DNA of 64,000 bases, taken from contig NZ_CP031229.1 of NCBI RefSeq assembly GCF_003351765.1, forward strand, positions 2,376,916 through 2,440,915, read 5' to 3'. The position numbers were made by a program, and so were the translations under genes. Source of the stretch: Ornithinimicrobium avium. GTDB taxonomy: Bacteria; Actinomycetota; Actinomycetes; Actinomycetales; Dermatophilaceae. The first letter of the stretch is position 1. Each line of letters opens with the position of its first letter. The notes beneath the pieces are model-generated. The model was not told the origin of the DNA, did not search any database, and was given only the letters and a program-made list of their open reading frames with translations. Positions 39,193 through 56,690 of this stretch are shown here, in pieces.

Positions 39193-39208
39193 GTGCGTCA
39201 TTCCGCCC
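39193..39208 (+). repeat. Island motif copy a (GTGCGTCATTCCGCCC, degenerate) at the left island boundary
   Basis: Read directly. Followed by the direct repeat TTCCGCCCAcTATGGG / TTCCGCCCAgAATGGG. Confidence 0.6.
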
Positions 39209-39396
39209 ACTATGGGACGCGTCCTTCCGCCCAGAATGGGCTAAGAACGACCTCGCCGAGGACAGCTAGGAATGGGTCCACATTAGGCGGAGGCTCCAAC
39301 GTTCACATTCCGAGGCAGCCCCCGGGACGCCTGCGACCAAGTGCCGTCAGTCGATTAAAGTTCCCGAATTCCTAACTCGAAAGAACAATGAGAAAT

Positions 39397-40410: not shown

Positions 40411-40531
40411 TCTCGCCTTCTCGCTCGCCGCCGGAACATGGATATCGGTCGGCGGCCCTCCCGATGTTGTCAAACGGTAGTCTTGCGGACCGACACACCC
40501 CCAGGGCACGGTCTCGGGCGACTCGTCATCG

Positions 40532-40550
40532 GTGCGTCATTCCGCCGCGA
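40532..40550 (+). repeat. Island motif copy b GTGCGTCATTCCGCCGCGA
   Basis: Read directly. Confidence 0.8.
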
Positions 40551-40693
40551 CTAACTGCTCTTCCCCATTGCAGCCAGTTTGGGTCCGCCTGCTCGGCCGT
40601 TGCGAGCGAAGCAGGAATTGGTCCGCGTAGCAGCTTGCCTTGTGGGGGCGACCGGTGATGGACGGTGGCCCTCTGCCACACTCAAAGTGGCGT

Positions 40694-41554: not shown

Positions 41555-41670
41555 GGGCTGCCGTCCTAGCGCGTATCAGTTCGTTGTGTCAATCAGCGAC
41601 TTAAGTTCCGTGCCACACCCACGCGCCGTGCGGTGTCAGGCCCGAATGAGCACCCGCCACCGAACTTCGG

Positions 41671-41688
41671 CGTGTCATTTCGCCGCAA
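41671..41688 (+). repeat. Island motif copy c CGTGTCATTTCGCCGCAAG
   Basis: Read directly. Confidence 0.7.
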
Positions 41689-41975
41689 GTGGCATGCGTG
41701 GCCGGTCGAGGGGGACCAGCCGATGCTGTCCTCTCGTGCACGTGCAGGCCAACGGTCGACGCTCGGGTGGCAGGGCTTGTCGGAGCCCGTCTCTAGCATC
41801 TCGGCATGGCTCAATGCACAGCGCCCGTCGACGGTCACCGCACGGCAAGCCTCCCGGCAAGCGGCCGCACCTGCCGCAGGCGTCGCTCTTACTGCCGCCC
41901 CACCTACCCCAACGCCACTCGGCGCCTGTTTGCGGCACTAAGCGTTGAAGAATCATTTGCGTTGCGGGAGAGGGT

Positions 41976-42554
41976 ATGGTAAAGCGCGCGTGGGGCAGTT
42001 GGAGGGAGGCTTCCCGCCTGTGGGACGCGTATCTATTGCGTGTTGGGCAATGGAGACTGCTACCGAAGCTCGCGGGCGTTGCAGTTGGCGACCTCGTGCT
42101 CAGCGTGTTGCTTGCCCGCCTTTCCTTTCTCCTTTGCCTACTCTTGGGCCTTCCTATGGTGTGGTTCGAGACGATCGTCAAGTTCATCGCCTTCACGGGG
42201 GCAATCGCTTTCGCTGTAGGTCTCGGCTCAATCTGCTGGATCGGCCTGAGGGACCTCGGGCTCAAGATTGGTGGTGTCGGCGCCTTGGCGATTGCAGTCG
42301 TGAACTTCTATGTGCTGAACTATGTTATCGACTATCAAGAGTGGATTTTGACTCAGGTCTCACGGGCGAGCCCGGATCCAGGTGGTTTTGCCGAGGGCAT
42401 TGACTGGGCCAATCCTTACGCTCGCTGGTACGTCGGAGTTGTTGCCCTGCTGGGAACTTTGATTGGATTCGTCTTCAAGATTAGGAACGCCTACGGACTG
42501 CTGCGCCACGGAGAGAAGCATAAGCAATCACCGACATGGAGCCGCCTCCAGTAG
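41976..42554 (+). CDS. Hypothetical integral membrane protein (4-5 TM)
   Basis: 192-aa hydrophobic ORF. Confidence 0.5.
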   Translation: MVKRAWGSWREASRLWDAYLLRVGQWRLLPKLAGVAVGDLVLSVLLARLSFLLCLLLGLPMVWFETIVKFIAFTGAIAFAVGLGSICWIGLRDLGLKIGGVGALAIAVVNFYVLNYVIDYQEWILTQVSRASPDPGGFAEGIDWANPYARWYVGVVALLGTLIGFVFKIRNAYGLLRHGEKHKQSPTWSRLQ

Positions 42555-42664
42555 GGACCATCCAAGCAAGTACTACGCCAGCTTGGTAACCCATCCGTAA
42601 GCGACCCGGGTGGGCACGTCCTTTTCCCGCGGACTCGCTTGTCGCGAGTCAGCGAGTCCGACCG

Positions 42665-42688
42665 GTGCGTCATTCCGCCGCGAGCGGA
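42665..42688 (+). repeat. Island motif copy d GTGCGTCATTCCGCCGCGAGCGGACG, directly 5' of the conserved integrase leader (42697-42786)
   Basis: Read directly. Confidence 0.8.
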
Positions 42689-42786
42689 CGCGGAGTCGGG
42701 CGCCGTAGCGTCGTTGGGGTCAGTGCCTCGTCGCGCTGGCGGCGGGCGTCGACAGTGGCCCTACGAGGTCGCCGCAGGAGGCGACC

Positions 42787-43710
42787 ATGTCCACCACGAC
42801 CAGCTCCACCGCGGCACTGCCGTTCCAGCCGTCCTCGATGAGCCCTGCGCAACTGGCAGCGGTCTCGTTCTTGGCTCGCTACTCCGGAGCGACTCACGCC
42901 CTGTACCGGGCACATCTGGGTCGCTGGTTCGCCTGGTGCGAGACCAACGCGTTGGACCCGTTGGTCGGGATACAGCGTGCGCACGTCGAGCTCTACATCC
43001 GTGACCTCGGGGACGCCGGCCTGATGGACTCCTCGGTGAACACGATGATGCACGCCGTGCGCGGGTACTTCCGGTTCGCGCACATCGACGGCACCATCCC
43101 CGCCGACCCGGCCGTGTACGCCCGGCTCCCGAAGGTCCACCGGGACGAGTCGCGCACCCAGGGCCTGGACCGGCTGGAGCTGATCCGCTTCCTCCAGGTC
43201 GCCCAGACGATCTCCGTCCACCACGGCGCGCTGGCCTACCTGCTCGGGATCAACGCCCTGCGCGCCTCCGAGGCCGCGGCCGTTCGCATCGAGGACTACA
43301 CCGACGTCCTGCGCGGCCACCGGGTGCTGCACCTGGTTGGCAAGGGCAACAAGCCCGCCACCATGCCGCTGACCGTTCCCGTCCTGCGGGTCCTGGAGGC
43401 CTGCCGCGGTGAGCGCACCACCGGGCCGCTGATCCTGCGACCGCTCTCCGGGAGACCGATCGACCGTCGTGACGTCTACCGGATGGTGCAGCGCATCGCG
43501 AGGAGCGCGCGGATCCCCAGGCACATCAGCCCCCACTCGCTACGGCACGCCGCCATCACCAACGCCCTGGACGCCGGCGTGCCCCTGCGCGACGCCCAGA
43601 TCCTCGCCCGTCACGCTGACCCCAGAACCACCGAGCACTACGACCGAGCCCGCGGCAACCTCGACCGCCACGGCGTCCACTTCCTCACCGCCTACGTCGC
43701 CGGCGTATAG
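42787..43710 (+). CDS. Tyrosine recombinase/integrase (XerD-like, 307 aa), copy 1
   Basis: N-terminal SAM-like core-binding domain. C-terminal catalytic R...HSLRHA...ARHADPRTTEHYD (R-H-R-Y). About 98% identical to the copy at 47742. Confidence 0.85.
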   Translation: MSTTTSSTAALPFQPSSMSPAQLAAVSFLARYSGATHALYRAHLGRWFAWCETNALDPLVGIQRAHVELYIRDLGDAGLMDSSVNTMMHAVRGYFRFAHIDGTIPADPAVYARLPKVHRDESRTQGLDRLELIRFLQVAQTISVHHGALAYLLGINALRASEAAAVRIEDYTDVLRGHRVLHLVGKGNKPATMPLTVPVLRVLEACRGERTTGPLILRPLSGRPIDRRDVYRMVQRIARSARIPRHISPHSLRHAAITNALDAGVPLRDAQILARHADPRTTEHYDRARGNLDRHGVHFLTAYVAGV

Positions 43711-43872
43711 GTACGCGGCCGACTACGTCAGATCCGCCCAGGATGATGTACCTGCGTGTGGGGCCTCAGGGGTCATCACAGGCCGCAGGTGACCAGCGCG
43801 TAGGCACCTGGGTTGGCGTGCAGGGAGAGGTGCGAGGAAACCCCGACTACTCTACGAAAGGATTATCTTACA

Positions 43873-44082
43873 TGAGAGCCGTCAACACCAGCACATTCCG
43901 CAGGAAACACGCCGATCAGATCACCGCTATGTCAGGAGTCCTGGGGGCAGCCGCCGAACCCCACGGCTCGGACAAGGAGTCGGCAGGGGCCGAGCGTTCG
44001 GCTACCTGTTGTGTCGCCCCGTATTGTCAATGGCCAAGAAGCCGACGTCAGGGTCCGGGTCTGGCCCTGTCCAGTCCTTGAT
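43873..44082 (+). CDS. Possible small Cys-containing ORF (69 aa)
   Basis: AAAGGA RBS 9 nt upstream of the ATG. Overlaps the 3' end of the antisense EF-hand pseudogene. Weak. Confidence 0.2.
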
Positions 44083-44306
44083 ACAGATCACCCCGTCCCC
44101 GTTCTTGTCGATGGTGTCAAAGAATCCCGGATTGTAAAGAATCCCGGATTGTCCGGGTTCACCAAGGTGGTGTTTTCCACCCACGGGCCCAGGCACTGTC
44201 CCCCCGCGGGAGGCACGGCCAAAGCGGTAACCGGTCCTACAGCGCCCAAGCCCAATGCAATCGCGACACATCCAAGAGCGCGGCGAGTGCGGTAATGACG
44301 ATCCAT
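44002..44306 (-). pseudogene. Secreted EF-hand calcium-binding protein gene inactivated by a 17-bp tandem duplication
   Basis: ATG 44306 with GGGAGG RBS. Signal peptide MDRHYRTRRALGCVAIALGLGAVGPVTALA. Frame breaks at the duplication, after which DTIDKNGDGVICIKDW (a DxNxDG loop) continues in another frame. NPGFF is encoded twice. Confidence 0.7.
44119..44152. repeat. Perfect 17-bp tandem duplication AAAGAATCCCGGATTGT x2
   Basis: Read directly. 17 is not a multiple of 3, so it causes a frameshift. Confidence 0.9.
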
Positions 44307-44763
44307 GACGACCTCCCTGTAAGCACGAAAGTGGGTCACCTCAGTGTTCTGCGGCCCTGCTCGCATGTCAACAGGCGGATCACAGCGGACGCCCGCCTCT
44401 GCCGCCGGTCGGTCGTTTCGGCGTGCGTCAATCCGCCGCATAGGGACGCGTCTTGGCGCCCGGACTGTGTGCTCCCTCCGTATCCAACGGAACCTCTGGC
44501 TCGCAGAAAACGCGCCGGTCGCCAACCTCGTCCCAGACAGGTGGAGCACCTGACCGCCCTCGCCCCTCCCTGACCCATCAGCGCTCATCCTGTCCCGACC
44601 AGCTAGCACACCGCCTGGGACCATGGAAAACTGACGTCGCGGAAGGCCGTCCGGAACTCTGTCCTACCCCAGTGCCAGAACTACCCCCCGACATCTCCTG
44701 CAACGCCGTCACACCACGGCCGACGGCGACCCACGAAAGAACGAGGATGGGCAATCTATTCAG

Positions 44764-45936
44764 CTAGTTTAGCGGTCGATTGCCGATCTTATCATGGATC
44801 GCGTCCTCATTCTCCATGTAAATTTGAGCTATGTCGCCGTCACCATTCGGCGCACCTAAGTAGTTTTGATTTATGGCGTTGGCCATCGAGTCGCTAGTAA
44901 AGGGCACTTCTAGTGGGTACAACATGAAGCGATTATCGACCGAAAATTCGGCGGTGAGTAGTTCACTGGTCGCACCATCGATGTAGTGGAGCGTGATGTC
45001 GTCATGTCGATTTCGCTCATCAGGGAAGAAATTGATCTGAGCGCCAAGGACAACGCTGTCAGCCGGCAAGGCGTCAGCCGTGGCGATCATCTGCCGGAGA
45101 CCAGCGTGGTCGAGCGCCGACGGACAGTCGAATTCATCCTCACAAAGTGTGCGGTCTTCGCCTGTCTCTGCCATGCCCCGTATCAGATAGGTACCCATAG
45201 CATCGAATATCCTTTGTGATTCTGGCATTACCCGATCGATATCTATGCCTAGCTCATCCTTGTTGACGAGATAGACGTTTAGGACGGCAGTGATATTTTC
45301 ACCAGCTGCCACCGCGATTTCAACCGATTCCGTCCCCCCACCAGGGGTCTCTAAGTCAGCCAGCCACGTGTTGTCTTCACGATCTATCAAGTCGGCGTGG
45401 TGGGCAAGAGGCGTCGATGCGCCCCTCTCGACCAGGAAGTTTTCGACATAATTACGCCCTGCTTCCGGTGCGGAACCTAGTATCCAATCGTGGTCCAGGC
45501 CCGCGTAGAAGGCTCGCATCTGGCTGATGTCCCCACCGTCATGAAAGTACGGCACCCGTTCAGTTGCAAATCTGAAGTCGACAGCTGCCGGCTCAGTATC
45601 GCTGGCTGTTGGGTCAACCACCTCTCCACCGGCCGGGCTGGGCGGGTCGATTTCGACAGGGGCGCTTGGCTGGACCCCAGCCGACGCGGTTGATACAGGT
45701 GGGGTTTGCTCGGCTCCGGGCTCGGTCTCGCCGTCGCCCAGGGTTGAGCCGACGAGTACGCCTCCACCCAGCAGCACCACTCCCGCCGCGACTCCGCCGA
45801 TTAATTTACTCCGGCTCTTTCGCTTGGCCTCCGCCTCACGCATGCGCGCAAGTTCGGCCCCTTCTTCGTCCACCACGTCGTGCTCCCTCAGTCCACGGAT
45901 GCCGGGATCGTACAACAACCCGCGTCGCGCCCGCAC
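44764..45936 (-). CDS. Hypothetical single-pass membrane-anchored protein with a large extracytoplasmic domain
   Basis: 390 aa, about 50% GC. Lys/Arg-rich N-terminus, TM helix LIGGVAAGVVLLGGGVLVG. Confidence 0.5.
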   Translation of the reverse strand: MRARRGLLYDPGIRGLREHDVVDEEGAELARMREAEAKRKSRSKLIGGVAAGVVLLGGGVLVGSTLGDGETEPGAEQTPPVSTASAGVQPSAPVEIDPPSPAGGEVVDPTASDTEPAAVDFRFATERVPYFHDGGDISQMRAFYAGLDHDWILGSAPEAGRNYVENFLVERGASTPLAHHADLIDREDNTWLADLETPGGGTESVEIAVAAGENITAVLNVYLVNKDELGIDIDRVMPESQRIFDAMGTYLIRGMAETGEDRTLCEDEFDCPSALDHAGLRQMIATADALPADSVVLGAQINFFPDERNRHDDITLHYIDGATSELLTAEFSVDNRFMLYPLEVPFTSDSMANAINQNYLGAPNGDGDIAQIYMENEDAIHDKIGNRPLN

Positions 45937-46181
45937 CGGACCGCTCGCGGCACCGAGAGTCCCTCCCGTAATCGATGAGCACCCGGGTTACGTGTTCAGT
46001 GTCTGTGTACTTCATCAGGACCCTCCTGCGCTACAACGTCGCTGTAGCCTTCGACGACCCTGATACGACGTTCTTGATGTCGTAGAAGCATTTGCCCGGA
46101 CGAGTGTGCCTTGGTCTCTTGTCTGCCATATCCGGGCTTGCTTCCCACTGAACTCATCGGCATTGGGTCGATCGTTGCGGA

Positions 46182-46207
46182 GTGCGTCATTTCGCCGCGA
46201 GCGGACC
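46182..46207 (+). repeat. Island motif copy e GTGCGTCATTTCGCCGCGAGCGGACC
   Basis: Read directly. Followed by GCGCCGGCGTAGTGGGACTCGG, resembling block 2 of copy d. Confidence 0.8.
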
Positions 46208-46237
46208 TGCGCCGGCGTAGTGGGACTCGGTGGATCG

Positions 46238-46501
46238 TCAGCGACGTTGGTAGATGTCGCGTCTGTGGCCGACGGCCACGACCAGGACGAGAAGGACGTC
46301 GTCGCGGATCTCGTAGATGATGCGGTAGTCGCCAGTGCGAACCCGCCACTCACCGTTTCCACCGACGAGTTTCTTCGCCGCATTGGGCCGGGGTTGGTCC
46401 GCGAGCAGCTCGACCGCTGCCTGCACGCGGCGCCGCGCATCTGGGTTGAGCTTACGCAGCTGGCGCACCGCGGCAGGCGCGACCTCGACGCGATATGTCA
46501 T
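46238..46501 (-). CDS. RelE/ParE-family type II toxin
   Basis: 87 aa: MTYRVEVAPAAVRQLRKL...GEWRVRTGDYRIIYEIRDDVLLVLVVAVGHRRDIY. ATGA overlap with the antitoxin. Confidence 0.8.
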   Translation of the reverse strand: MTYRVEVAPAAVRQLRKLNPDARRRVQAAVELLADQPRPNAAKKLVGGNGEWRVRTGDYRIIYEIRDDVLLVLVVAVGHRRDIYQRR

Positions 46502-46761
46502 GCCAGGCCGAGGTCGGCCTTGACCTGATCCCACGGGATGGCAGTCTCGCCCTCGTCCAGCTCGGCTCGGGCGGCCCGGGCGGCCTCGATGTCGGCAAGG
46601 TCCTCCGCGGCTGCGATCAACCCGTCCAGATCGTTGGCATCGATCACGGCAGCCACCCGCCGGCCACGACGGGTCAGGTAGATCGGGTCGTGCCCGATGC
46701 GGGCGGCATCGACGACATCCGCCAGTCGAGCTCGGGCGTCGCTGACAGTGATCTCTCTCAT
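46498..46761 (-). CDS. Phd/YefM-family type II antitoxin
   Basis: 87 aa: MREITVSDARARLADVVDAARIGHDPIYLTRRGRRVAAVIDANDLD. Confidence 0.8.
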   Translation of the reverse strand: MREITVSDARARLADVVDAARIGHDPIYLTRRGRRVAAVIDANDLDGLIAAAEDLADIEAARAARAELDEGETAIPWDQVKADLGLA

Positions 46762-46884
46762 GGATCAACGGTACCGCATAAACCGCGATTTTGTACAATA
46801 GAGCCTAGTTGGCGCACTTCTGTCGGGTAGGGCAGCACCCCAGCAGCACCCCAGCGTCGCGGCGGGTCACGTCATCAGGAGACC

Positions 46885-46902
46885 GCATCACTTCGCCGCG
46901 AG
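46885..46902 (+). repeat. Island motif copy f GCATCACTTCGCCGCGAG
   Basis: Read directly. Confidence 0.7.
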
Positions 46903-46952
46903 TAGGTATGGACGGTAGCGGCCCCGGAGAGGAAGTCCAGCTCGCCGTGGCC

Positions 46953-47558
46953 TCAGTGGCTCCGGCCAGCTTTGGCGGGGCAGTGCTCGACGCCGACTCC
47001 TCCCGGCCTCCAGGTGATTCCGGTGATCGAGCGCAGCGGCGCGAACGGGTCGCATGCTCGTGGCCAGGCCACCGGCAGGCTGGCCGAGATCTCTGTTGCC
47101 TCGCCCGGGGAGGCCCGAACGGCCAACCGGCGCAACGCCTCTACGTCAGTGAGCTTGACCGTGACACTCCAGGTCGCCGTCCCGTGGTCGACGGAGTCGC
47201 CGCCCTTGGCCTCGCTCTCCACCGACAGGATCCGCAAGGCGCCGGCCTCCACCGCCTCCTCCAGCCCATCGCTGGGCCAGATCAGCCAGGCAAGGGCATC
47301 GAAGACGTCATCGTCGGGCGCGGCATCCGGTGCCTCACGCTCGGCCTCCTCGACGCCGAGGTCACCGCCCGAGGCGGCGATCACGACGCCCTCGTTCGAC
47401 CGCGCCGCGGCCTGCAGGGCAGAAGCATCAGTGATGGTGACCTCTGCGGTGGCGGTCAGTTGCCACACCTGCCGGTTCTTCCCGCGCTGCGGTGGCTGGG
47501 GAGGGACCTGCGGCTGGTGGTCGGGCAGCTGAAAGAGACCTGGCTGGTCGGCATCCAT
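46953..47558 (-). CDS. Conserved hypothetical protein 'geneX' (201 aa), divergently paired with integrase copy 2
   Basis: ATG 47558 (MDADQPGLFQLPD...). An about 85%-identical paralogue is fragmented at 53342-53861 and 55313-55406. The listed 610-aa ORF is extended by the antisense of the integrase. Confidence 0.6.
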   Translation of the reverse strand: MDADQPGLFQLPDHQPQVPPQPPQRGKNRQVWQLTATAEVTITDASALQAAARSNEGVVIAASGGDLGVEEAEREAPDAAPDDDVFDALAWLIWPSDGLEEAVEAGALRILSVESEAKGGDSVDHGTATWSVTVKLTDVEALRRLAVRASPGEATEISASLPVAWPRACDPFAPLRSITGITWRPGGVGVEHCPAKAGRSH

Positions 47559-47741
47559 GCCGACCGACCCTATGCCCCTCAGCTCCGCTGGTCCGATGTC
47601 TGACGGAAGGTCGCGCGCTCCGTCGCACGTCTCATCGCCGGGCGGGTCCAGTGTTCGGCGTAGCGTCGTTGGGGTCAGTGCCTCGTCGCGCTGGCGGCGG
47701 GCGTCGACAGTGGCGCAACGAGGTCGCCGCAGGAGGCGACC

Positions 47742-48665
47742 ATGTCCACCACGTCCAGCTCCGAGACGATCCTGCCGTTCCAGCCGTCCTCGATGAGTGC
47801 CGCGCAGCTGGCAGCGGTCTCGTTCCTGGCGCGGTATTCCGGGGCCACGCATGCCCTGTACCGGGCGCAACTGGGTCGCTGGTTCGCCTGGTGCGGGACC
47901 AACGGGTTGGACCCGTTGGTCGGGATACAGCGAGCCCACGTCGAGCTCTACATCCGTGACCTCGGGGACGCCGGCCTGATGGACTCCTCGGTGAACACGA
48001 TGATGCACGCCGTCCGGGGCTACTTCCGGTTCGCCCACATCGACGGCACCATCCCCGCCGACCCGGCCGTGTACGCCCGGCTCCCGAAGGTCCACCGGGA
48101 CGAGTCGCGCACTCAGGGCCTGGACCGGCTGGAGCTGATCCGTTTCCTGCAGGTTGCTCAGACGATCTCCGTCCACCACGGCGCGCTGGCCTACCTGCTC
48201 GGGGTCAACGCGCTGCGTGCCTCCGAGGCCGCGGCGGTGCGGATCGAGGACTACACCGACGTGCTGCGAGGCCACCGGGTGCTGCACCTGGTTGGCAAGG
48301 GCAACAAGCCCGCCACCATGCCGCTGACCGTTCCCGTCCTGCGGGTCCTGGAGGCCTGCCGCGGTGAGCGCACCACCGGGCCGCTGATCCTGCGACCGCT
48401 CTCCGGGAGACCGATCGACCGTCGTGACGTCTACCGGATGGTGCAGCGCATCGCGAGGAGCGCGAGTATCCCCAGGCACATCAGCCCCCACTCGCTTCGG
48501 CACGCTGCCATCACCAACGCCCTGGACGCCGGCGTGCCCCTGCGCGACGCCCAGATCCTCGCCCGGCACGCTGACCCCAGAACCACCGAGCACTACGACC
48601 GAGCCCGCGGCAACCTCGACCGGCACGGCGTCCACTTCCTCACCGCCTACGTCGCCGGCGTATAG
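47742..48665 (+). CDS. Tyrosine recombinase/integrase (XerD-like, 307 aa), copy 2
   Basis: Near-identical to copy 1, including the 97-bp upstream leader (47645-47741). Confidence 0.85.
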   Translation: MSTTSSSETILPFQPSSMSAAQLAAVSFLARYSGATHALYRAQLGRWFAWCGTNGLDPLVGIQRAHVELYIRDLGDAGLMDSSVNTMMHAVRGYFRFAHIDGTIPADPAVYARLPKVHRDESRTQGLDRLELIRFLQVAQTISVHHGALAYLLGVNALRASEAAAVRIEDYTDVLRGHRVLHLVGKGNKPATMPLTVPVLRVLEACRGERTTGPLILRPLSGRPIDRRDVYRMVQRIARSASIPRHISPHSLRHAAITNALDAGVPLRDAQILARHADPRTTEHYDRARGNLDRHGVHFLTAYVAGV

Positions 48666-48711
48666 TCGGGCTGCCACGTCAGTTCCGCCCAGATAGACGC
48701 GCGCTTCGCTG

Positions 48712-49380
48712 CTATTGCTCAGCGCGTTGTCCGGGGGAGATGAATCCTGACTCGTAGGCGAAGATGACTGCTTGCACGCGGTCACGCACTCCGAGCTTGG
48801 CGAAGAGCCGGTTGATGTGTGTCTTCACCGTGGCTTCGGACACGAACATCACGCGGGCTATGTCGGCGTTCGAGCGGCCGTTGGCCAGGTGCTCGAACAC
48901 CTGTCGCTCCCGCTCGGTGAGCTCAGCGAGTCCGGGTGCTGTTTCGCCGGGGCGTGGTTTGGCCATGAACTGGCGCATCAGCTGCCTGGTCACGTCGGGA
49001 GCGATCAGCTCCGTCCCTGCGGCGACGGACCGTACCGCGTGGACGAGGTCACCGGCGGTCGTGGTCTTCAGGAGGAAGCCCGACGCGCCTGCGTGGAAGG
49101 CGTCCCAGACGTTCTCATCGGCCCCGTAGGTCGTCAGCACGATGACCCGTCCGGTCCAGTGCCGGTCGGAACAGATCCGACGGGTTGCCTCGACGCCGTC
49201 CAGCAGCGGCATCCTGATGTCCATCAGGACGACGTCCGGAGTCAGTCGAAGGGTCTGCTCGACAGCATCGACCCCGTCCTCCGCTGCGCCGACGACCTGG
49301 CAATCGGGTTGAGAGTCGAGGATTGCCTGGAACCCTTCGCGCACGAGTGCCTGGTCATCCACGACGAGGACGCGAATCAT
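48712..49380 (-). CDS. NarL/LuxR-family two-component response regulator
   Basis: Receiver domain (VLVVDDQALVREG...VLMDIRMP) and LuxR HTH (LTERERQVFEHLANGRSNADIA). Confidence 0.85.
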   Translation of the reverse strand: MIRVLVVDDQALVREGFQAILDSQPDCQVVGAAEDGVDAVEQTLRLTPDVVLMDIRMPLLDGVEATRRICSDRHWTGRVIVLTTYGADENVWDAFHAGASGFLLKTTTAGDLVHAVRSVAAGTELIAPDVTRQLMRQFMAKPRPGETAPGLAELTERERQVFEHLANGRSNADIARVMFVSEATVKTHINRLFAKLGVRDRVQAVIFAYESGFISPGQRAEQ

Positions 49381-50651
49381 GACTCACCCACGTGATGCTC
49401 CAAGGGGAACCGGCCCCGGACGACCCAGCTGCCATCCGGCAAGCGTGGTCCGGCTTCGAGTGTCCCGCCATAGAGCCGGGCACGTTCGCTCATGCCGATG
49501 ATCCCGAAGCCAGGACTCTCCGGGCGCTGGGGACGACCGCCTCCGTCGTCGATGATCTCCACCTGTAGGGCGACGGGGGTGTAGGTGATGATCACCTCGC
49601 AGCGGCTCCGGCTCGCGTGCTTGCGCACGTTGGTGAGTGATTCCTGGACGATCCGGAAGATCGAGAGAGCCAACCCGCGCGGCAGCTCACGAGGTGTGCC
49701 CTGGACGCTCAGGCTCACCGAGTGACCCACGGCCTGCTCGGCGGCGATGAGCTCGTGCACGTCATCGAGGGCCGGTTGAGGTCGGCGTCCGGCAGTCTCG
49801 CCTCCGCGCATCAGCCCCAACATGTGGCGCATCTCGAGCATCGCTTCAGCACCTGTCGCCTGGACCTCGTGCATGGCCTTACGAGCAGCCTCGGGTGAGT
49901 AGTCAATCAGCTCGGCGGCAGCAGCTGCCTGCACGACCATCGCAGAGAGGCCGTGAGAGACGATGTCATGAAGCTCTCGGGCGATGCGCTCTCGTTCGTC
50001 GTCGGCCGCCCGTCTCGTCCGGCGCTGCGCGCTGGCGACCGCCTCCGCCTCCGCGCCGGCGCGCGCGCGGACCAGGACACCAGCGATCCACGGACCAGTG
50101 ATGAGGAGCAGACCGAAACCGTAGTCGGAGCCGCCCACGCCTGTGGCCGCGATCGCAACCGAGACCAGCGTGGTGCCGATCGCGAGGCCGATGGCCGAGG
50201 CTTTCCGATCGAGGTGCGCGCCGACGGAATAGGCGGCGACGAGGATGAACGGGATCGTCATCAGCTGGGCGTTGACGGCGACGCCGAGGAATGACTGGAC
50301 GGTCAGCGCCAGCAGGACGAGCGTGAGGCACGTGCGCGGGCGCAGCCGCCGTATTATCAGCGCAGCGGTCATGACCAGCAGGGACAGGTTCGCGACCAAC
50401 GCGTGGCCGGGGACCGCCCCGAGCGTCACCTCGACCAGGCCAGCGAGTCCGATGACTCCCGCGAGCAGGATGTCCTCTCGACGCTCCGCACCCATCGTCC
50501 GGACCGACGAGCTGACGGAGTGGACGTCGAGCCCATCACCGACCCACCGCATGCCCATCAGCGTCTCAGGTACCGCCGCGGGATGCATCCACCTTGCGGC
50601 CAGCTCCCTCAACCTGCGGATGGAACAGGCTCCGCGATTTCTTGGAGCCAA
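49377..50651 (-). CDS. Sensor histidine kinase (HisKA_3/NarX-DesK type) with multi-TM sensor
   Basis: H-box ELHDIVSHGLS. HATPase region. ATGA overlap with the regulator. The exact start is uncertain (50651 is the longest ORF). Confidence 0.75.
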   Translation of the reverse strand: MAPRNRGACSIRRLRELAARWMHPAAVPETLMGMRWVGDGLDVHSVSSSVRTMGAERREDILLAGVIGLAGLVEVTLGAVPGHALVANLSLLVMTAALIIRRLRPRTCLTLVLLALTVQSFLGVAVNAQLMTIPFILVAAYSVGAHLDRKASAIGLAIGTTLVSVAIAATGVGGSDYGFGLLLITGPWIAGVLVRARAGAEAEAVASAQRRTRRAADDERERIARELHDIVSHGLSAMVVQAAAAAELIDYSPEAARKAMHEVQATGAEAMLEMRHMLGLMRGGETAGRRPQPALDDVHELIAAEQAVGHSVSLSVQGTPRELPRGLALSIFRIVQESLTNVRKHASRSRCEVIITYTPVALQVEIIDDGGGRPQRPESPGFGIIGMSERARLYGGTLEAGPRLPDGSWVVRGRFPLEHHVGES

Positions 50652-50743
50652 GAGCTACCGAAACTGCCTCTGCGGCCGACGCGCGAGCCAGCGAGAACGG
50701 ATGGACTTACCGGGTCCGATTCCGTCAATGAGGAGCCAAACCC

Positions 50744-51457
50744 ATGCGCAACGAACCACAGGCGTTGTCCGCAACAAGTCCAGTCGACACACACGCCTCA
50801 CACGCCCATCGCATCGTCACGGCAGCGGCGCTCGCCGGCTCCGCCATGCTCGTTGGCATCGGCGGACTCATCGCGCCGCCGAACGACGGGCAGGCAACTG
50901 GCCTGTACGACGTGGCGTCCTCGGCCCCCGGCCGCCTGACGGTCGAGGCCGTCGTACTCGTCATCTCATCCATCCTGCTCGTCGTCGGCGTGATCGGCGC
51001 CGCGCGGGTGGTCCGCGGCCGCGGGAGGCGGCTGGCCTGGGCCGCCGCCCTCTTCGGGGTGATGGGCGCCCTCGGCCACGTCGCCTACGCCACCTTCTCC
51101 CTCATCACGATCCAGGTCGTAGACGCAGCACCAGACCGCGCCGCGGCAATCGAGACTCTTGACAGTATCAACGGCGATGCGGCGATCGGACTGCTCGTGA
51201 TGCCGCTGGTCGTGGCGTACGGGCTGTCGGTGATCCTGCTCCCGATCGCCTTCTACCGTCGCCGGCTGGTGCCACTCTGGGTCGTCGGACTCGCCGGCGT
51301 GGCGTTCGTCCTCGAGGTGGTAGCCCCCGGCGGCGTCCTCGCGGTCCTCGGTCTAAAGTACGCACTCGGGGCGGCGGCAGGCCTGGCCCTAGGCTGGCGG
51401 ATCACACAGCTCTCCAACTCGGAATGGCGCAACCCAGAAACCATCGACCTAACCTGA
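50744..51457 (+). CDS. Hypothetical integral membrane protein (6 TM), divergent from the two-component system
   Basis: 237-aa hydrophobic ORF. Confidence 0.5.
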   Translation: MRNEPQALSATSPVDTHASHAHRIVTAAALAGSAMLVGIGGLIAPPNDGQATGLYDVASSAPGRLTVEAVVLVISSILLVVGVIGAARVVRGRGRRLAWAAALFGVMGALGHVAYATFSLITIQVVDAAPDRAAAIETLDSINGDAAIGLLVMPLVVAYGLSVILLPIAFYRRRLVPLWVVGLAGVAFVLEVVAPGGVLAVLGLKYALGAAAGLALGWRITQLSNSEWRNPETIDLT

Positions 51458-51587
51458 CCCGACACCGTCGCGGCGGACGCGCGTCACCAGGCGGGCCACA
51501 AGGAACCCTCGGGTCGGGATGGCCAACTGCACCCCGCTTCGCCCGTGCTGGTTAGTCACGAAACCCCTTGCACGCCGCAGCCGACAA

Positions 51588-51608
51588 GCGCGTCACTTCG
51601 CCGCGAGC
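51588..51608 (+). repeat. Island motif copy g GCGCGTCACTTCGCCGCGAGC
   Basis: Read directly. Confidence 0.75.
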
Positions 51609-51676
51609 CGGGCGCTTTTACTCGCGTCGTGGGTAGCAGTTGGAGGGCGAGCCGCCGTGTAGACGGAATCATCTAC

Positions 51677-51892
51677 ATGGCGTACCGTTGCCACATGGCC
51701 GAGACGACGACGATACGCATCAGCCGGGACACCCACGCCCGGGTCACCCGCTTGGCGGCCGAGCGCCACGAGACGATCGACGAGTTGGTGAGCAGCGCTC
51801 TGAGAGCGCTGCGCCAAGACGGCATGGGCCGCGACCTGTCCGAAGATCTCACTGAGGATGAGACGGCCTGGCTCGATGCTGACGCCGGGTGA
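51677..51892 (+). CDS. Ribbon-helix-helix (MazE/CopG-like) antitoxin
   Basis: TTIRISRDTHARVTRLAAERHETIDELVSSAL. Start at 51677 or 51695. 17-nt overlap with the toxin gene. Confidence 0.65.
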   Translation: MAYRCHMAETTTIRISRDTHARVTRLAAERHETIDELVSSALRALRQDGMGRDLSEDLTEDETAWLDADAG

Positions 51893-52214
51893 CGTCGTCG
51901 AGCTCGACCTCGGCACTCCGGCCGGTAGCGAGGCGGGGCTACATCGTCCCGCGGTCGTCGTCACTGCCGCACGGGTGCTGGCGGGTGGACCGAACGTCGT
52001 GCAGGTAGTGCCGCTGACCCGCACCATCCGGTCCAGCAGCACCGAAGTGGTCATCGACCCTGATCACGGCAACCGTCTTGCAGAGCGTTCCTCGGCGCAG
52101 TGCCAGCACGTGCGATCTGTGGCCACCTCGCGTATCCAGCACCGCACCGGAAATGTCGGCCCCGTAGTACTCGGCGAGGTCCGAGAGACCCTCGCGCTGC
52201 TGCTGGACCTCTAA
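51876..52214 (+). CDS. MazF/PemK-family endoribonuclease toxin
   Basis: MLTPGDVVELDLGTPAGSEAGLHRPAVVVTA...VQVVPLTRTIR. Confidence 0.75.
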   Translation: MLTPGDVVELDLGTPAGSEAGLHRPAVVVTAARVLAGGPNVVQVVPLTRTIRSSSTEVVIDPDHGNRLAERSSAQCQHVRSVATSRIQHRTGNVGPVVLGEVRETLALLLDL

Positions 52215-52265
52215 CGTCCCTCGGCGCGGGCCCTCGACGAGAGTCCAGCGCTTCGACGTAGCCCC

Positions 52266-52280
52266 TTCCGCCGCGTTTCG
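52266..52280 (+). repeat. Degenerate island motif copy h (CCTTCCGCCGCGTTT), preceded by block 2 GCGCTTCGACGTAGC
   Basis: Read directly. The block order is reversed relative to copies d and e. Confidence 0.45.
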
Positions 52281-52381
52281 CCATTTGTAGGCCTTGTCGA
52301 AGTCCGTCTAGACCTCGAGAAGTTGGATGTTGGACTCGCTTGATCGGTCACTGTTGGAGAGGGCTTGGCTACGAGGGTTGG

Positions 52382-52684
52382 TCAGCCCCAGAAGATGTGG
52401 GTGGGGTCGCGGTCTATCTCGTCTAGGAGGGACTCGATGGTGCGTGCGGACCCGACCCGGTCGTACAGGTGGAAGCGGAGGTTGCGGTCCCTCCAGTACA
52501 AGGTCCAGGCCTTGTCCTTTGCGGTGTATCGCAGGCGCGCGATGGGCAGGCTCGTCCATTCGGGTCCGAAGTCCTCGCGCCAGGGCGCGCGCCGCTCGAC
52601 GATGGTCAGGTGTCGGTCGCTCTGGAACGGCCACCGGTCAGGCTCCGTTGCTGCCGGCTGCGGCGTTGAGCGCTTCGAAGGCAA
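52382..52684 (-). CDS. Small hypothetical protein (DUF3024-like?)
   Basis: 100 aa: WTLYWRDRNLRFHLYD. Confidence 0.4.
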   Translation of the reverse strand: MPSKRSTPQPAATEPDRWPFQSDRHLTIVERRAPWREDFGPEWTSLPIARLRYTAKDKAWTLYWRDRNLRFHLYDRVGSARTIESLLDEIDRDPTHIFWG

Positions 52685-53222
52685 CGTCGAGTCGCCGCTG
52701 GCGACGCATGTCAGTTTCGTGGTTGGCTTCGGCTGCGAGGGACCCGATGAGTTCCTCCAGTCCGTCTTCGGTGGCAGGCAGGACGACCTTGCCGGTGGCG
52801 TGAGGATGGATCCGGAACACCAACCGTTGAGAGTCGACGTCGAGCAGGTTCAGTTCGCGCAGCGTCGCTGCCACCTCGGTGGGGATGAGGATCTGGTGGA
52901 CGGGCTCGGCGCGAGCGAGCCGTCGCGGTCGCAGGTCGAACGGTGAATCGGCCCAGTTACTGATGCGGCCCTGGTCTGCGCAGCTGCTGCACTGCCAACG
53001 GATCGGAACCGAGACGTCGAGGTCGCGGTGCAGAACCATCCGGCCCGGGCAGGCACGGTGGCCGGGGCGGCGGCGACATGGCAGCGCGCTCTCCCAAGCT
53101 GTACCCGCGTCGCCTGCGGTGGCCGCGCTGACGAGGTCGCCCAGCTGCTCGGCAAGCCGGCGTGCGGGGCCTGGTGCATCCAGGGGCAGGTCGAGGAAGT
53201 GCTGCAGATCGGTGACCATCAT
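52638..53222 (-). CDS. Hypothetical Cys-rich protein
   Basis: 194 aa. CRRRPGHRACPGR...WQCSSCADQGR is a possible Zn ribbon. 47-nt overlap with the downstream ORF. Confidence 0.4.
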   Translation of the reverse strand: MMVTDLQHFLDLPLDAPGPARRLAEQLGDLVSAATAGDAGTAWESALPCRRRPGHRACPGRMVLHRDLDVSVPIRWQCSSCADQGRISNWADSPFDLRPRRLARAEPVHQILIPTEVAATLRELNLLDVDSQRLVFRIHPHATGKVVLPATEDGLEELIGSLAAEANHETDMRRQRRLDVAFEALNAAAGSNGA

Positions 53223-53341
53223 CGCCCCGGAACTGTACCTGCCGCCAGGGCTGGGCTACGGCTCGGTGTACACCCGCGTCACCGCCGCGAGAAGACCTGG
53301 AGGGTTGCGGTCCCACCGGATGGAGCCAGCTCTGCGTGGCT

Positions 53342-53861
53342 TCAGGGATTCCGGTTAGCCCTTGCCGGGAGGTGCTCGACGAGGACTCGCCCCGGCTTCC
53401 AGGTGATTCCGGCGACCGAGCGCAGCGGCGCGAACGGGTCGGCTGCCCGCTGCCAGGCCACCGCCAGGCTGGCCGAGATCTCCGTTGCCTCGTCCGGGCA
53501 TGCCCGGGCGGCCAACCGGCGCAGCGCCTGCACGTCAGTGAGCTTGGCCGTGACGCTCCACGTGGCCGTCCCGTGATCGACGGAGTCGCCCCTGGCCTCG
53601 CTCTCCACCGACAGCATCCGCAGGGCGCCGGCCTCCAGCGCCCCCTCCAGTCCATGACTGGGCCAGATCAGCCAGGCAAGTGCATCGAAGACGTCATCGC
53701 CGGGCGCGGTATCCGGTGCCTCACCCTCGGCGTCGTCGAGGCCGAGGTCTCCGCCCGAGGCGGCGATCACGACACCCTCGTCCGCCCGCGCCGCGGCCTG
53801 CAGGGCTGCAGGATCAGTGATGGTGATCTCCGCGGTGGCGGTCAGTTCCCACAGACCCGTG
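53342..53861 (-). pseudogene. geneX paralogue B, 3' fragment (disrupted by IS110)
   Basis: WELTATAEITITDPAALQAAARADEGVVIAASGGDLG... is about 85% identical to the copy at 46953. It joins in-frame to the IS110 transposase C-terminus, producing the chimeric 502-aa ORF. Confidence 0.7.
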
Positions 53862-55081
53862 AATAACCCGGGCCAGGGCGTGCGCGGGAGCGCGTCGGGC
53901 GGAGCCCGACACGTCGTTCCGGTATACTGGTTGCGGCGGGCCAACCAGTCCGCACCGACGTCAAGGTAGGGCTCGTCGTTCTTGAGCATGTGGTAGGCGC
54001 ACACCAGAATCGAGTGCGCGACCGCGACCTGAGCCCGACCCGCCCCGCGGCGCTTGGTCAGGCGGGCGTGCTGGGCCGCGAGATAGTTCTTGCCCTTCAT
54101 CCGTCCCACCGAGCCAGCGGACTCGACCAGCATCGCGCATAGCCACTTGTTGCCATGCCGGGTACCGGAGGGTCGAGTGCGGCCCGCTGACTGGTACACC
54201 GAGGGTGCCAGCCCTGCCCAGGAGGCCAGGTGCGCCGCGGAAGGAAAGCGCGACATATCGGCTCCGGTCTCAGCCACGATCACCTGGGCGACGCGTTCAC
54301 CGACAGAAGGGATCGTCTGCAACAGCTCGATCTGGTGAGCCCACGGCGCGCAGGCGACCGTGATCGCCTCGTCGGCCTCGACCAGGTCCTGCTCGACCAT
54401 GTCCAGCCGGTTCAGGATGGAGCGGGCCAGCTGGGCGTGGTGGGCGTCGAAGTGCCCCTCCAACGCCTGGGCCAGGTCGGGGATCTTGCGGCGCATCTTG
54501 CCCTTGGCCAGCTCGGCCAGCACCAGCGGGTCCCGTTCCCCGGCGATCATCGCCGCCAGCATCGCCCGGGCCGAGACCGTGGTCAGCGTGGACGCGACCG
54601 ATGACAGCTTGATGGAGGCGTCCTCCAGCATCATTTCCAGGCGGATGCACTCCCGGGTCCGGTCGCCCATCAGCTGCACCCGGTAGCGGGTCAGCATCCG
54701 CAGCGAGCGGATCCCCGGCGGCGGCACGAACGAGGGCGCCAGCAATCCGTGCTCCAGCAGCTGGGCGATCCACTCCGCGTCCCGCACGTCGGTCTTGCGA
54801 CCCGGCACCGCCTTCATGTGCGCGGCGTTGAGCAACCACACCTCCATCACCTCCTCCAGGCAGTAGAACGGCTTTCAGTACGTCGAGGTCGACTCCATCG
54901 CCGCGATCGTGACCCCGCACTCGGTCAGCCAGTCCCGCATCACCCGCAACGACCCGGTCGTCGTCTTGAACGTGCGCGTCTCCGCGTGCCGGCCACGCCG
55001 GGCTCCCGGGGTGCGCACGCACACCGTCACCGAGTCCTTGCCGACGTCCAACCCGGCCACCCGCTCGAAGAGCACTTGCAT
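53862..55081 (-). pseudogene. IS110 transposase with an in-frame TGA (W-to-stop) at 54875-54877 and an aberrant 3' end
   Basis: MESTSTY*KPFYCLEEVMEVWLLNAAHMKAVPGRKTDV. The expected SYWKP tryptophan codon reads TGA. The C-terminus diverges from the second copy after DEPYLDVGADW. Confidence 0.7.
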
Positions 55082-55312
55082 CTGTCCCAGCTCCCTTCCC
55101 AGTCATCGGCCGCGACCATCGCGACCCGACGCCGTCCGGAAGACCCTCTGCCAGGACACAGACCCGCGTGCTCGTAGCAACAATCCAGCGACACCCGAGG
55201 ACCTCGCGTCATACACCTCTACGGGCTCACCCGCACCAGTGTGTGTCGACGTCGCCGGACGACACCCCCATTCTCAGCGACCGGCACAGGGACCGCAGGT
55301 CCCAAGTCCGTT
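53862..55312 (-). mobile_element. IS110-family insertion sequence (1451 bp, no inverted or direct repeats) inserted in geneX-B
   Basis: Flanks reconstruct an uninterrupted geneX (agagaggtgt|IS|gggaactgacc). The transposase has the DEDD N-terminus VAGLDVGKD and LLQTIPSVG...LASWAGLAPS. Confidence 0.75.
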
Positions 55313-55406
55313 ACACCTCTCGGGTCCTCCCGCGGTGCCCTCGTTCGGCAGGAAGTTGCGTCTCGCGATCGGGCAGCTCAAAGAGCCCAGGCTGGTCGGG
55401 ATCCAT
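55313..55406 (-). pseudogene. geneX paralogue B, 5' fragment (MDPDQPGLFELPDRETQLPAERGHRGRTREV)
   Basis: ATG at 55406. It ends at the IS110 right end. Confidence 0.65.
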
Positions 55407-55600
55407 GGCGACCCACCCTATGCCCGTCATCCCACTGGTTTGATGTCTGGCGGGCACGGTCGCGCGGGCGCGTCATAGCGTGCTCATCGCCGGAGGCGAT
55501 GCTTGTGCGCTTCGACGTAGCGTCGAAGTCGTTCAGAGCCTCGTCGCGCTAGCCGCGGGCACCGCTGAGGCCCCAGTCCAGGTCGCCGCAGGAGGCGACC

Positions 55601-56161
55601 ACGTCCACCACGACCACCTCAAGGACGGTGCCGCCGTTCCAGCCGTCCTCGATGAGCCGCACGGCTCGCGGCGGTCTCGTTCCTGGCCCGGTACTCCGGG
55701 GCCACGCATAACGCATGCCCTGTCAACACGATGATGCACGCCGTCCGGGGCTACTTCCGGTTCGCGCACATCGACGGCACCATCCCGGCCGACCCGGCCG
55801 TGTACGCCCGGCTCCCGAGAGTCCAGCGGGACAAGTCCCGCACCCAGGGCCGGGCCTGGACCGGCTGGAGCTGATCCGCTTCCTTCAGGTCGCCCAGACC
55901 ATCGTCCACCACGGCGCACTGGCCTACCTGCTCGGGATCAAATCACTGCGCGTCTCCGAGGCCGCAGCCGTGCGCCTCGAGGACTACACCGACGTCCTGC
56001 GGGGCCACCCGGTGCTGCACCTGCTCGGCAAGGGCAACAGGCCGCGCCACGATGCCGCTAATGGTCCCAGTCTTGCGGGTCCTCGAAGTCCGCCGCAGGG
56101 GAGCGCACCACAGGCCCGCTGATCCTGCGCTCGCTCTCTGTGCTATGGCACGCCGCCATCA
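55601..56161 (+). pseudogene. Tyrosine recombinase copy 3, decayed (start ATG to ACG, internal ~140-bp deletion, frameshifts, 3' truncation by IS110 fragment)
   Basis: Leader and coding sequence align to copies 1 and 2 (LDRLELIRFLQVAQTI-VHHGALAYLLGI...). The start reads gcgaccACGtccacc. Confidence 0.75.
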
Positions 56162-56690
56162 CTAACGCCCTGGACGCAGGTCATCGTGGCCGAGACCGGC
56201 GCGGACATGTCCCGCTTCCCTTCCGCCGCGCACCTGGCCTCCTGGGTCGGGATCGCCCCCGGCGTGTACGAGTCCGCGGGCAAGACCCGTCCGGCCGGCA
56301 CCCGGCACGGCAACAAGTGGCTCTGCGCGATGCTCGTCGAGGCCGCCGGATCGGTGGCGCGAGGGCACGGGAAGAACTACCTCGCCGCGCAGCACACCCG
56401 CCTGGCCAAACGCCGCGGCCGGGGCAGAAGCCAGGTCGCGGTCGCGCACTCGTTCCTGGTGTCGGCCTACCACATGCTCATCAACGACGAGCCCTACCGC
56501 GACCTCGGCGCTCACTGGGTGTCGCGCCGGACCCAGGAAGCCCACACCCGCCGCCTCGCCGCACAGCTGGAACGGCTCGGTCATATGGTCGTCATCGACC
56601 CAGCCGCCTGACCCTCCGGTCCGGAACGACGTGCCGGTCTCCGCCCGCGCCCTCACGGGCACGCCTCGGCCGGGTTATTCACGGGTCTGT
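56162..56690 (+). mobile_element. IS110-family fragment (3' half; transposase C-terminal 141 codons at 56186..56611) in opposite orientation to the first copy
   Basis: AETGADMSRFPSAAHLASWVGIAPGVYESAG... is about 85% identical to the first copy. It shares the terminal sequence CCCGGGTTATTCACGGGTCTGT. Confidence 0.7.

Follow-up and report, generated by a model that had tools for sequence, protein, structure and literature searches.

Three integrase copies in a GC-poor island

The stretch of DNA analysed here (the window) comprises 64,000 nucleotides of Ornithinimicrobium avium (assembly GCF_003351765.1, contig NZ_CP031229.1, positions 2,376,916 to 2,440,915). Its GC content is 71% overall and falls to 0.60-0.69 in a GC-poor stretch at ~39 to 59 kb, compared with 0.71-0.77 elsewhere. 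This stretch carries, within 14 kb, three copies of a gene (int) for a Xer-like tyrosine recombinase, together with short, directly repeated sites that divide the DNA into small gene cassettes. The cassette array spans ~17 kb, and the site-bearing GC-poor island lies at 39.2-53.3 kb. In this study we examine the integrases, the sites and the cassettes, from whose sequences and comparative arrangement it seems likely that the three integrases are the recombinases of a chromosomal cassette array analogous to an integron.

Two of the genes, int1 (42787..43710, + strand) and int2 (47742..48665, +), are intact and encode 307-residue proteins, each matching Phage_integrase and Phage_int_SAM_1, which gives a two-domain architecture. 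The motifs LRASE, GKGNK, HSLRH, ARHAD and EHYDR of int2 are typical of tyrosine-recombinase catalytic residues; by motif reading, the candidate residues are R159, H250, R253, H276 and Y285 (from LRASE, HSLRH, ARHAD and EHYDR) and the lysine in GKGNK, so that both the catalytic motifs and the two domains of a tyrosine recombinase are present. The two genes share their DNA until ~30 bp past the stop codon and are 94.7% identical in DNA and 96.7% in protein, somewhat below the ~98% estimated in an earlier note on this DNA; from the ratio of nonsynonymous to synonymous substitution rates (dN/dS) of 0.11 between them, int is judged to be under purifying selection. An O. avium integrase protein (P0121) is 99% identical to int2. 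The third copy, int3 (55601..~56161, +), is a remnant, as the earlier note had also recognised: it has an ACG start codon, a 126-bp deletion and frameshifts, is truncated by an IS110 fragment (56177..56611, +) and keeps the leader and hairpin found upstream of the other copies.

The integrase belongs to a large family: a search at E < 1e-40 yields more than 4,000 proteins. Identity is 84% or higher in each of the best 120, for which the genera named are Ornithinimicrobium, Nocardioides, Flexivirga, Pedococcus and Intrasporangium; across genera the identity is 84-93%. The scores against the described recombinase families are low: 101 bits against XerC (cut-off 335), 88 bits against XerD (cut-off 330), 45.5 bits against the integron integrase family TIGR02249 (cut-off 265, with a match only at residues 226-287) and 19.6 bits against NF011946 (cut-off 435). 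The best matches in the PDB are XerD (1a0p) and the XerA-like 4a8e (archaeal XerA), with Brujita Gp33 also among the nearest, while no IntI appears among the matches at E < 1e-5. A housekeeping XerC or XerD was rejected on these scores and on the presence of three copies within 14 kb of a GC-poor island, and an IntI on the distance from both integron cut-offs. A plasmid or phage origin was rejected as well, int having no relative in IMG/VR and a best PLSDB match of 36% identity; no phage or conjugation genes were found in the arrays of the window, Pedococcus and Flexivirga. The earlier note did not recognise the recombinase module as a described element family, and no described family that matches it was found here.

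A short oriented site in two classes

The repeated site is ~24 bp long and oriented, with a strong left arm (G)TGCGTCA, 2-3 variable bases, a near-invariant central CCGCC and a weak right arm; its best-kept part is GTGCGTCAyyyCGCCGC. It comes in two classes. Class-1 sites, with the central region CCGCCGC(G/C), separate cassettes, while R-type sites have the central region CCGCCCAG and near-palindromic arms, GCGTCAyT and AATGACGC. A first idea, a 13-bp direct repeat flanking int (CGTCAnTTCCGCC), gave too few matches in the window for significance and was superseded by a 22-nt position weight matrix (PWM), trained on other loci with the window excluded and applied at a threshold of at least 14 bits. 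This matrix finds nine sites in the window, at 39192, 39216, 40531, 41669, 42664, 44422, 46181, 46882 and 51587, all on the + strand and inside the GC-poor island, with none in the remaining ~46 kb; shuffled island sequence yields 0.5 matches at 10 bits. Others are the R-type sites that follow int1 (43725) and int2 (48676), one at 53276 that has a 1-nt deletion, and those upstream of int2 and int3, which are decayed. Every site in the window falls between open reading frames (ORFs), and the cassettes so bounded measure ~0.7-2.9 kb.

The integrase gene itself stands between one site of each class. A class-1 site, here called L, with the sequence (T)GCGTCAyyCCGCCGCCTGCGGACGC, lies ~120-135 nt upstream of the int ATG, and an R-type site, GCGTCrnyTCCGCCCAGAATGACGC, 10-45 nt past the stop codon. 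When the flanks of ~85 int loci from several genera are lined up, conservation runs from the L site to the R-type site and the outer flanks are unrelated, so that the unit ends, which the earlier note had proposed to map by comparing copies and relatives, are now placed at these two sites. The site upstream of int is class-1 in 31 cases and R-type in none; the first site downstream is R-type in 35 and class-1 in one. R-type sites also occur 0.2-8.5 kb upstream of int, and in Flexivirga a single one lies 15 nt after dnaB (locus L117, 4576). At a locus of Nocardioides sp. YIM B13467 (L036, 3360-5000), the gene of an IS481-like transposase, ending 40 nt short of the int start codon, has replaced the leader and the L site; genes for ThiF, Prok-JAB and DUF6602 proteins lie downstream of int.

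Strand polarity is pronounced. Of the sites at the int loci, 156 share the strand of int and 2 are opposite, a count drawn partly from the loci on which the PWM was trained. Outside the training set, all 9 sites of Pedococcus bigeumensis share the strand of int (8 intergenic, one overlapping a gene start by 6 nt), as do 6 in Flexivirga endophytica, where one weak site is opposite.

These data bear on whether the repeats are recombination sites at all. They could instead be elements of the repetitive extragenic palindromic (REP) kind, regulatory elements or terminators, with int merely resident and the rearrangements produced by homologous recombination between short repeats. Such a reading would account for the weak right arms and for the many int genes with no detectable R-type site, and the recombination mechanism is itself a proposal from sequence comparison; yet it leaves unexplained why int stands between two particular site variants whose order and orientation are fixed (31:0 upstream, 35:1 downstream), and why strand polarity relative to int is nearly absolute. 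The repeats also have the anatomy of a tyrosine-recombinase core site, namely two inverted arms around a conserved 8-bp centre, clearest in the R-type, and no terminator-like feature was found in 42560-42800, the sole region scanned. An identity of ~16 bp is too short for efficient RecA-dependent exchange. We regard this alternative as very improbable.

The cassette array of the window

The array begins 75 nt after the stop codon of a thiolase gene, with two adjacent R-type sites, GCGTCATTCCGCCCACTATGGGAC and GCGTCCTTCCGCCCAGAATGGGCT (39195..39242, +), that overlap head to tail: GGGACGC, the right arm of the first, lies over GCGTCC, the left arm of the second. Three cassettes of ORFans with no known domain follow: a 349-residue ORF (39460..40509, -), the class-1 site GCGTCATTCCGCCGCGACTAACTG (40534..40557, +, 25.9 bits), a 286-residue ORF (40694..41554, -) whose hydrophobicity, judged by eye, suggests a membrane protein, the weaker class-1 site GTGTCATTTCGCCGCAAGTGG (41672..41695, +, 18.2 bits) and a 192-residue ORF (41976..42554, +). 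The class-1 site L1, GCGTCATTCCGCCGCGAGCGGACG (42667..42690, +, 28.1 bits), forms the 5' edge of the int1 unit, and the R-type site R1, ACGTCAGATCCGCCCAGGATGATGT (43725..43749, +), with a degenerate right arm, follows int1.

After a small ORF come the class-1 site GCGTCAATCCGCCGCATAGGGACG (44425..44448, +, 24.2 bits), a 390-residue ORFan with no known domain (44764..45936, -), the class-1 site GCGTCATTTCGCCGCGAGCGGACC (46184..46207, +, 28.8 bits), a ParE toxin/Phd antitoxin cassette (46238..46761, -) and the class-1 site GCATCACTTCGCCGCGAGTAGGTA (46885..46908, +, 17.7 bits). The next cassette holds a single gene of a conserved family, which we call geneX. It is separated from int2 by L2, a decayed class-1 site ACGTCTCATCGCCGGGCGGGTCC (47627..47650, +) that aligns with an intact site at locus L002, and int2 is followed by the R-type site R2, ACGTCAGTTCCGCCCAGATAGACGC (48676..48700, +).

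Beyond R2 lie genes for a response regulator (-) and a histidine kinase (-), both named by reading the translations, and a 237-residue hydrophobic ORF (+), together at 48712..51457. Homologues of the regulator/kinase pair (48712-50651) occur in a site-bounded interval of locus L080 (3443-5233), on the opposite strand relative to the sites. The class-1 site GCGTCACTTCGCCGCGAGCCGGGC (51590..51613, +, 24.4 bits) is followed by a MazF/PemK toxin gene (51858..52214, +), whose upstream ORF is the likely antitoxin (MazEF), by genes for a DUF3024 protein and a 194-residue partner (52382..53222, -), and by the class-1 site with a 1-nt deletion, GCGTCACCGCCGCGAGAAGACC (53276..53298, +), whose downstream flank is homologous to the flank of the 46885 site. 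A second copy of geneX (geneX') and int3 complete the series. The DUF3024 protein matches PDC-S43, a candidate defence family of PADLOC, at E 2e-16, its upstream partner being without a match, and the pair stands directly downstream of geneX also in Serinicoccus and O. flavum; it may represent a candidate defence cassette of two genes. A weak L-like sequence, GCGCATCCGCCGCCGGGCGGACGTC (57938-57965, +), lies beyond the last integrase remnant, in DNA that stays GC-poor to ~59-60 kb, and may be the relic of a further unit.

The window can therefore be read as a tandem series of three units (39219-43725, 43725-48676 and 48676 to ~56.2 kb), each in the order R - cassettes - L - leader - int - R, an arrangement that would explain the 4,955-bp spacing of the repeat. 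The third unit is decayed and invaded by IS110.

Arrays and cargo in other genomes

Comparable arrays exist in Pedococcus, Flexivirga and O. flavum, and arrays were seen at loci L024, L077, L100, L114, L116, L117 and L118, adjoining different core genes in different genera. The 77 intervals without int have a median length of 1.3 kb and usually contain one ORF; their 110 predicted proteins include only four families with more than one member. Over all arrays the cargo includes predicted toxin-antitoxin pairs and defence-like genes (ParE/Phd, MazF, PIN, Abi_C, CHAT, Mrr, TIR, SLATT, NERD and nSTAND NTPases), and further PIN/Phd, ParDE, ParB_N and ThiF-JAB. Arrays with no nearby integrase also occur (L015, L033), resembling the clusters of attC sites lacking integron integrases (CALINs); in one of them, from a metagenome-assembled genome (MAG; L015, 1454-7667), two diverged geneX copies and five same-strand sites are present with no integrase in the 12.6 kb of sequence covered.

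Module breakpoints lie inside sites

One trace of module movement comes from Serinicoccus, where a 3.0-kb block [DUF3024 - 194 aa - geneX - int], 99.2-99.4% identical, is found at four loci (L026, L027, L028 and L031) with unrelated flanks. At one end the flanks run up to GCGTCA plus 3-4 variable bases of their own, after which the common sequence starts with CGCCGCGTTTCG; at the other end the common sequence finishes with CATCACGACTCCGCCGA and the flanks differ again. Both breakpoints thus fall inside the CCGCC core of a site, as would be expected if a tyrosine recombinase exchanged strands in the central part of its site. Between O. flavum and the window, int2 and geneX are 88% identical and the homology ends at 46883 and 48694, at the 46885 site and at R2. 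The geneX cassette, which in the window lies between int and either ParE/Phd or the 194-aa gene, has different neighbours in O. flavum, L002, L014, L015, L023 and L032, the homology ending at sites each time. Over all loci, homology breaks off internally at 459 points, of which 106 are no more than 20 bp from a site, where 10 are expected.

Direct site repeats and several int copies would also result from tandem accretion alone, in which independent small elements, most of them without int and comparable to cis-mobilizable elements (CIMEs), stack at one att site with no ongoing integron-like exchange. The R-type sites beside core genes, after thiolase in the window and dnaB in Flexivirga, fit this view, as does the absence of any orientation bias among the ORFs. 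It does not readily account for one block, at 99% identity, standing in four neighbourhoods with both ends in sites, for the varying neighbours of the geneX cassette, or for the placement of arrays beside different core genes in different genera; these varied neighbourhoods favour repeated exchange among many sites over insertion at one attB. We consider accretion alone unlikely, and it differs from an exchanging, integron-analogous array in degree more than in kind.

Insertion at a tRNA or transfer-messenger RNA gene was also rejected: the window holds one dubious tRNA-Gly, and none lies beside geneX or int in 20 loci.

The geneX cassette

The intact geneX (46953..47558, -) encodes 201 residues and is a single-gene cassette. 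The copy geneX' (53342-53850 and 55313-55406, -) is interrupted by an IS110-family element (53851-55312, 1.46 kb), and its halves, once rejoined, read in frame. The earlier note had placed both copies correctly and seen no recognisable domain, in agreement with the lack of any match in Pfam, NCBIfam or PADLOC; its estimate of ~85% identity was too high, the proteins being 75.5% identical, with a dN/dS of 0.58. To judge from 165 homologues at E <= 1e-3, in Ornithinimicrobium, Serinicoccus, Fodinibacter, Nostocoides and many MAGs, the family is real and conserved.

In the window geneX and int stand head to head twice, which had led to the proposal of a self-contained mobile module, [geneX <- leader -> int], with geneX as a dedicated directionality or targeting factor. 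The same pair occurs in Ornithinimicrobium (including O. flavum), Serinicoccus and one Humibacillus MAG, the only places where it was seen, and the two genes do travel together as one block. The association does not extend beyond these close relatives. Among 23 geneX loci, taken from contigs of one genome per species and searched for int within 6 kb, int is head to head in one (L016), convergent with geneX and two cassettes away in the near-identical MAG contigs L002 and L003, present as fragments only in one, and lacking in 19. Conversely, geneX is found at none of 80 metagenomic loci whose integrases are 83-93% identical, and int1 of the window has no geneX partner. Such a lack of co-occurrence elsewhere is an outcome that the earlier note had itself named as refuting its proposal.

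Where geneX is found apart from int, it looks like any other cassette. At L002 it makes up a cassette alone, flanked by sites at both ends and two cassettes from int, and at L014, L015 and L023 it has an intact site immediately upstream, with no int after. The sites at geneX loci are antisense to geneX, as in the window. Its fold gives no hint of DNA binding, and the dN/dS of 0.58 likewise speaks against a dedicated partner. In the head-to-head pairs of Ornithinimicrobium and Serinicoccus the site between the two cassettes is decayed; such decay would have fused geneX to the int cassette, so that the pair duplicates and moves jointly. On this comparative evidence geneX is best described as an ordinary single-gene cassette, and we give hardly any credence to a two-gene module. 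What stands of that proposal is that int forms the core of a mobile recombination module, whose unit is [site - leader - int - site].

A role for geneX as a general neighbour of tyrosine recombinases was rejected too, phage-type integrases occurring in the flanks only at Nostocoides (L009 = L025), L021 and L032. In Nostocoides sp. F2B08 (L025, 6246-8606), the gene head to head with geneX, 574 bp away, encodes an unrelated phage-type integrase of 393 residues. The element that carries this integrase also has an HTH_17 excisionase-like gene and a TrwC relaxase, and no sites of the array kind were found at the locus. It may be that geneX is often located at the borders of islands from causes that have nothing to do with the cassette system.

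The leader of the integrase gene

Between the L site and the ATG, int carries a leader that is kept as primary sequence across genera. In the window, leader 1 (42691..42786, +) contains a TAGCGT block, a GCC..GGCGGC block and a hairpin, GGTCGCCGCAGGAGGCGACC, over the ribosome-binding site; leader 2 lies at 47651..47741 (+), and the decayed L3 site with leader 3 at 55478..55600 (+). Leaders 1 (42697-42786) and 2 (47652-47741) are identical at 84 of 90 positions, in accordance with the common leader described in the earlier note. The T, A and T of the TAGCGT block are invariant across genera, and this TAnnnT fits the actinobacterial -10 motif, so the leader probably carries the int promoter. A scan of 42560-42800 for sigma-70 promoters and terminators returned none, although its consensus is of the E. 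coli type and says little for an actinobacterium. The leader also holds extra GCGTC-like and CGCCGC-like elements.

A leader of ~135 nt that is strongly kept across genera, with a hairpin covering the ribosome-binding site just 5' of the ATG, might be thought to be a structured or guide RNA, riboswitch-like or bridge-RNA-like, that programs or regulates the recombinase. The leader has no Rfam match at E <= 1, its covariation term in RNAalifold is -0.18 kcal/mol with compensatory change in only 2 of 9 predicted pairs, and its folding energies show no excess stability over shuffles (z from -0.8 to +0.9). What is conserved is the primary sequence, including copies of the arm and core motifs of the site and the invariant TAnnnT. 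A known or structured RNA was rejected on these grounds, a guide RNA appearing barely credible, and the leader is better read as a set of DNA-level signals, putatively a promoter and recombinase-binding elements. One integrase subfamily (L086, L088, L100, L102, L107 and L114) has a different leader 3' end, GCATGCTCGCCAGrTCGCCGGGAGCATGCC, which could form a different hairpin over the ribosome-binding site, equal in position and differing in stem sequence, with energies no better than shuffles.

A model for the array

Taken with the strand polarity, the intergenic position of the sites, the L/R asymmetry and the breakpoints inside sites, the integron-analogous reading suggests the following mechanism. 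Int would bind the arms of the site and catalyse strand exchange within the CCGCC central region, where the exact cleavage positions would lie. Recombination between two class-1 sites would lead to excision, insertion or reshuffling of cassettes. The L and R sites that flank int would be poor mutual partners because their central regions differ, and int would thus not be lost by self-excision. Recombination between two R-type sites could move a whole unit. The roles given here to the two site classes, like any regulation through the leader, are part of the proposal.

Several observations weigh against this reading. The right arm is complementary to the left at only 3.0 of 8 bases in class-1 sites and 4.4 of 8 in R-type sites, where the background is ~2. 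With a strict pattern, about half of the int genes (38 of 74) have no R-type site, and several loci, L036, L043 and L080 among them, have few or no sites. R-type sites occur at the left array edge beside core genes, where a simple attB-like insertion predicts the right edge, and the right end of the array in the window is not defined. The cassette ORFs show no orientation bias relative to the site (58 against 52), unlike those of integrons, and the overlap with the training loci softens the strand count. Among 118 loci, no otherwise collinear pair differing by a single cassette was found, nor was a circular intermediate or an empty site observed in the sequences compared; some of the breakpoints could have arisen from homologous recombination between short repeats.

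Comparison with integrons and other mobile systems

The array resembles integrons in several respects. In both, a tyrosine recombinase stands beside a specialised site, L taking the position of attI; an array of small, mostly single-gene and diverse cassettes carries a repeated, oriented site; ORFans, toxin-antitoxin pairs and defence-like genes abound in the cargo; and arrays without a nearby integrase occur, like CALINs. A site-bounded array with a primary site near the integrase is present here (the nine PWM sites with R1, R2 and 53276, and L ~120-135 nt upstream of int). There are also differences. The recombinase lies outside the IntI clade and is nearer to XerC, XerD and XerA. The sites are of the core type, ~24 bp long and without GTTRRRY, whereas integron attC sites are folded hairpins of 55-140 nt with a GTTRRRY core. 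Integron cassettes are mostly promoterless, co-oriented and read from a common promoter, Pc, while the cassette ORFs here have no common orientation. Three features that define integrons are thus lacking. Moreover, int lies within a site-bounded unit, three times in one array, and a second site class, the R-type, brackets whole units.

With Xer/dif, the integrative mobile elements that exploit Xer (IMEX) and the pdif modules of Acinetobacter, the system shares a simple Xer-like recombinase of ~300 residues without an arm-binding domain. It further shares with them short two-arm core sites and bounded modules that often carry toxin-antitoxin genes. It differs from them in having an element-borne, multi-copy recombinase in a GC-poor island, sites that are GC-rich and directly repeated, and arrays that are chromosomal, with no close relative of int in PLSDB. 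The array sites are, we take it, unlike dif.

Tandem accretion of CIMEs and the composite staphylococcal cassette chromosome (SCC) offer another parallel, with modules with and without recombinase in tandem, direct repeats of the att core between them, and modules lacking a recombinase that could be moved in trans. Here, by contrast, the modules are ~1 kb long and many, the same modules recur in different neighbourhoods, and there are two site classes; the arrays carry no conjugation or phage functions, and SCC elements use serine recombinases. The recombinase-in-trio (RIT) elements and Tn554-type transposons are likewise multi-copy tyrosine recombinase genes of mobile units in Actinobacteria, with three different adjacent recombinases where there is one per unit here. 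No TnpC-like accessory gene or terminal inverted repeats were seen, neither having been specifically searched for. A RIT element was rejected: the int copies are single, near-identical genes ~5 kb apart with unrelated genes between them, not three different adjacent recombinases (RitA, RitB, RitC) in an operon.

Integrons are the model for site-specific gene capture and shuffling, and are reported to be essentially absent from Actinobacteria, for which IntegronFinder 2.0 found no complete integrons (PMC9024848). The cassette arrangement of the present array does not appear in a survey of tyrosine recombinases (PMC8138268). No description of such an array was found in the literature, within an incomplete coverage that makes an earlier description possible, and an integron-analogous cassette array of this kind appears to be undescribed. 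More broadly, the system may be an independently evolved, integron-like means of gene capture in Actinomycetota, with a Xer-like recombinase, short double-strand core-type sites of two classes, int inside the array and a cargo of ORFans, toxin-antitoxin and defence-like genes, filling the niche that integrons hold in Proteobacteria; on this wider proposal our judgement is evenly balanced. If it is true, this capture strategy has evolved more than once, on a different recombinase clade and with a simpler site. It would open to mining a large pool of small cassettes (accessory, toxin-antitoxin and defence) in a phylum that matters for antibiotics and biotechnology, and the compact recombinase with its ~24-bp site would be a possible genome-engineering tool for high-GC bacteria. 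The size of the int family and the motif make the system easy to search for and to test.

Insertion sequences and a tRNA-like call

Two diverged IS110 copies lie in the third unit. The fragment that truncates int3 is inverted relative to the first copy and 80% identical to it over 360 nt, and the copy that splits geneX' made no target duplication. IS110 is also present at the edge of the Pedococcus array (L118, 20794 onward). IS1111 elements target attC. In the cassette after the GCGTCAATCCGCCGCATAGGGACG site, ARAGORN calls a 79-nt tRNA-Gly(tcc) at 44601-44679 (-), where Rfam has no tRNA at E <= 1; probably the call is false or marks what is left of a tRNA-like sequence after decay.

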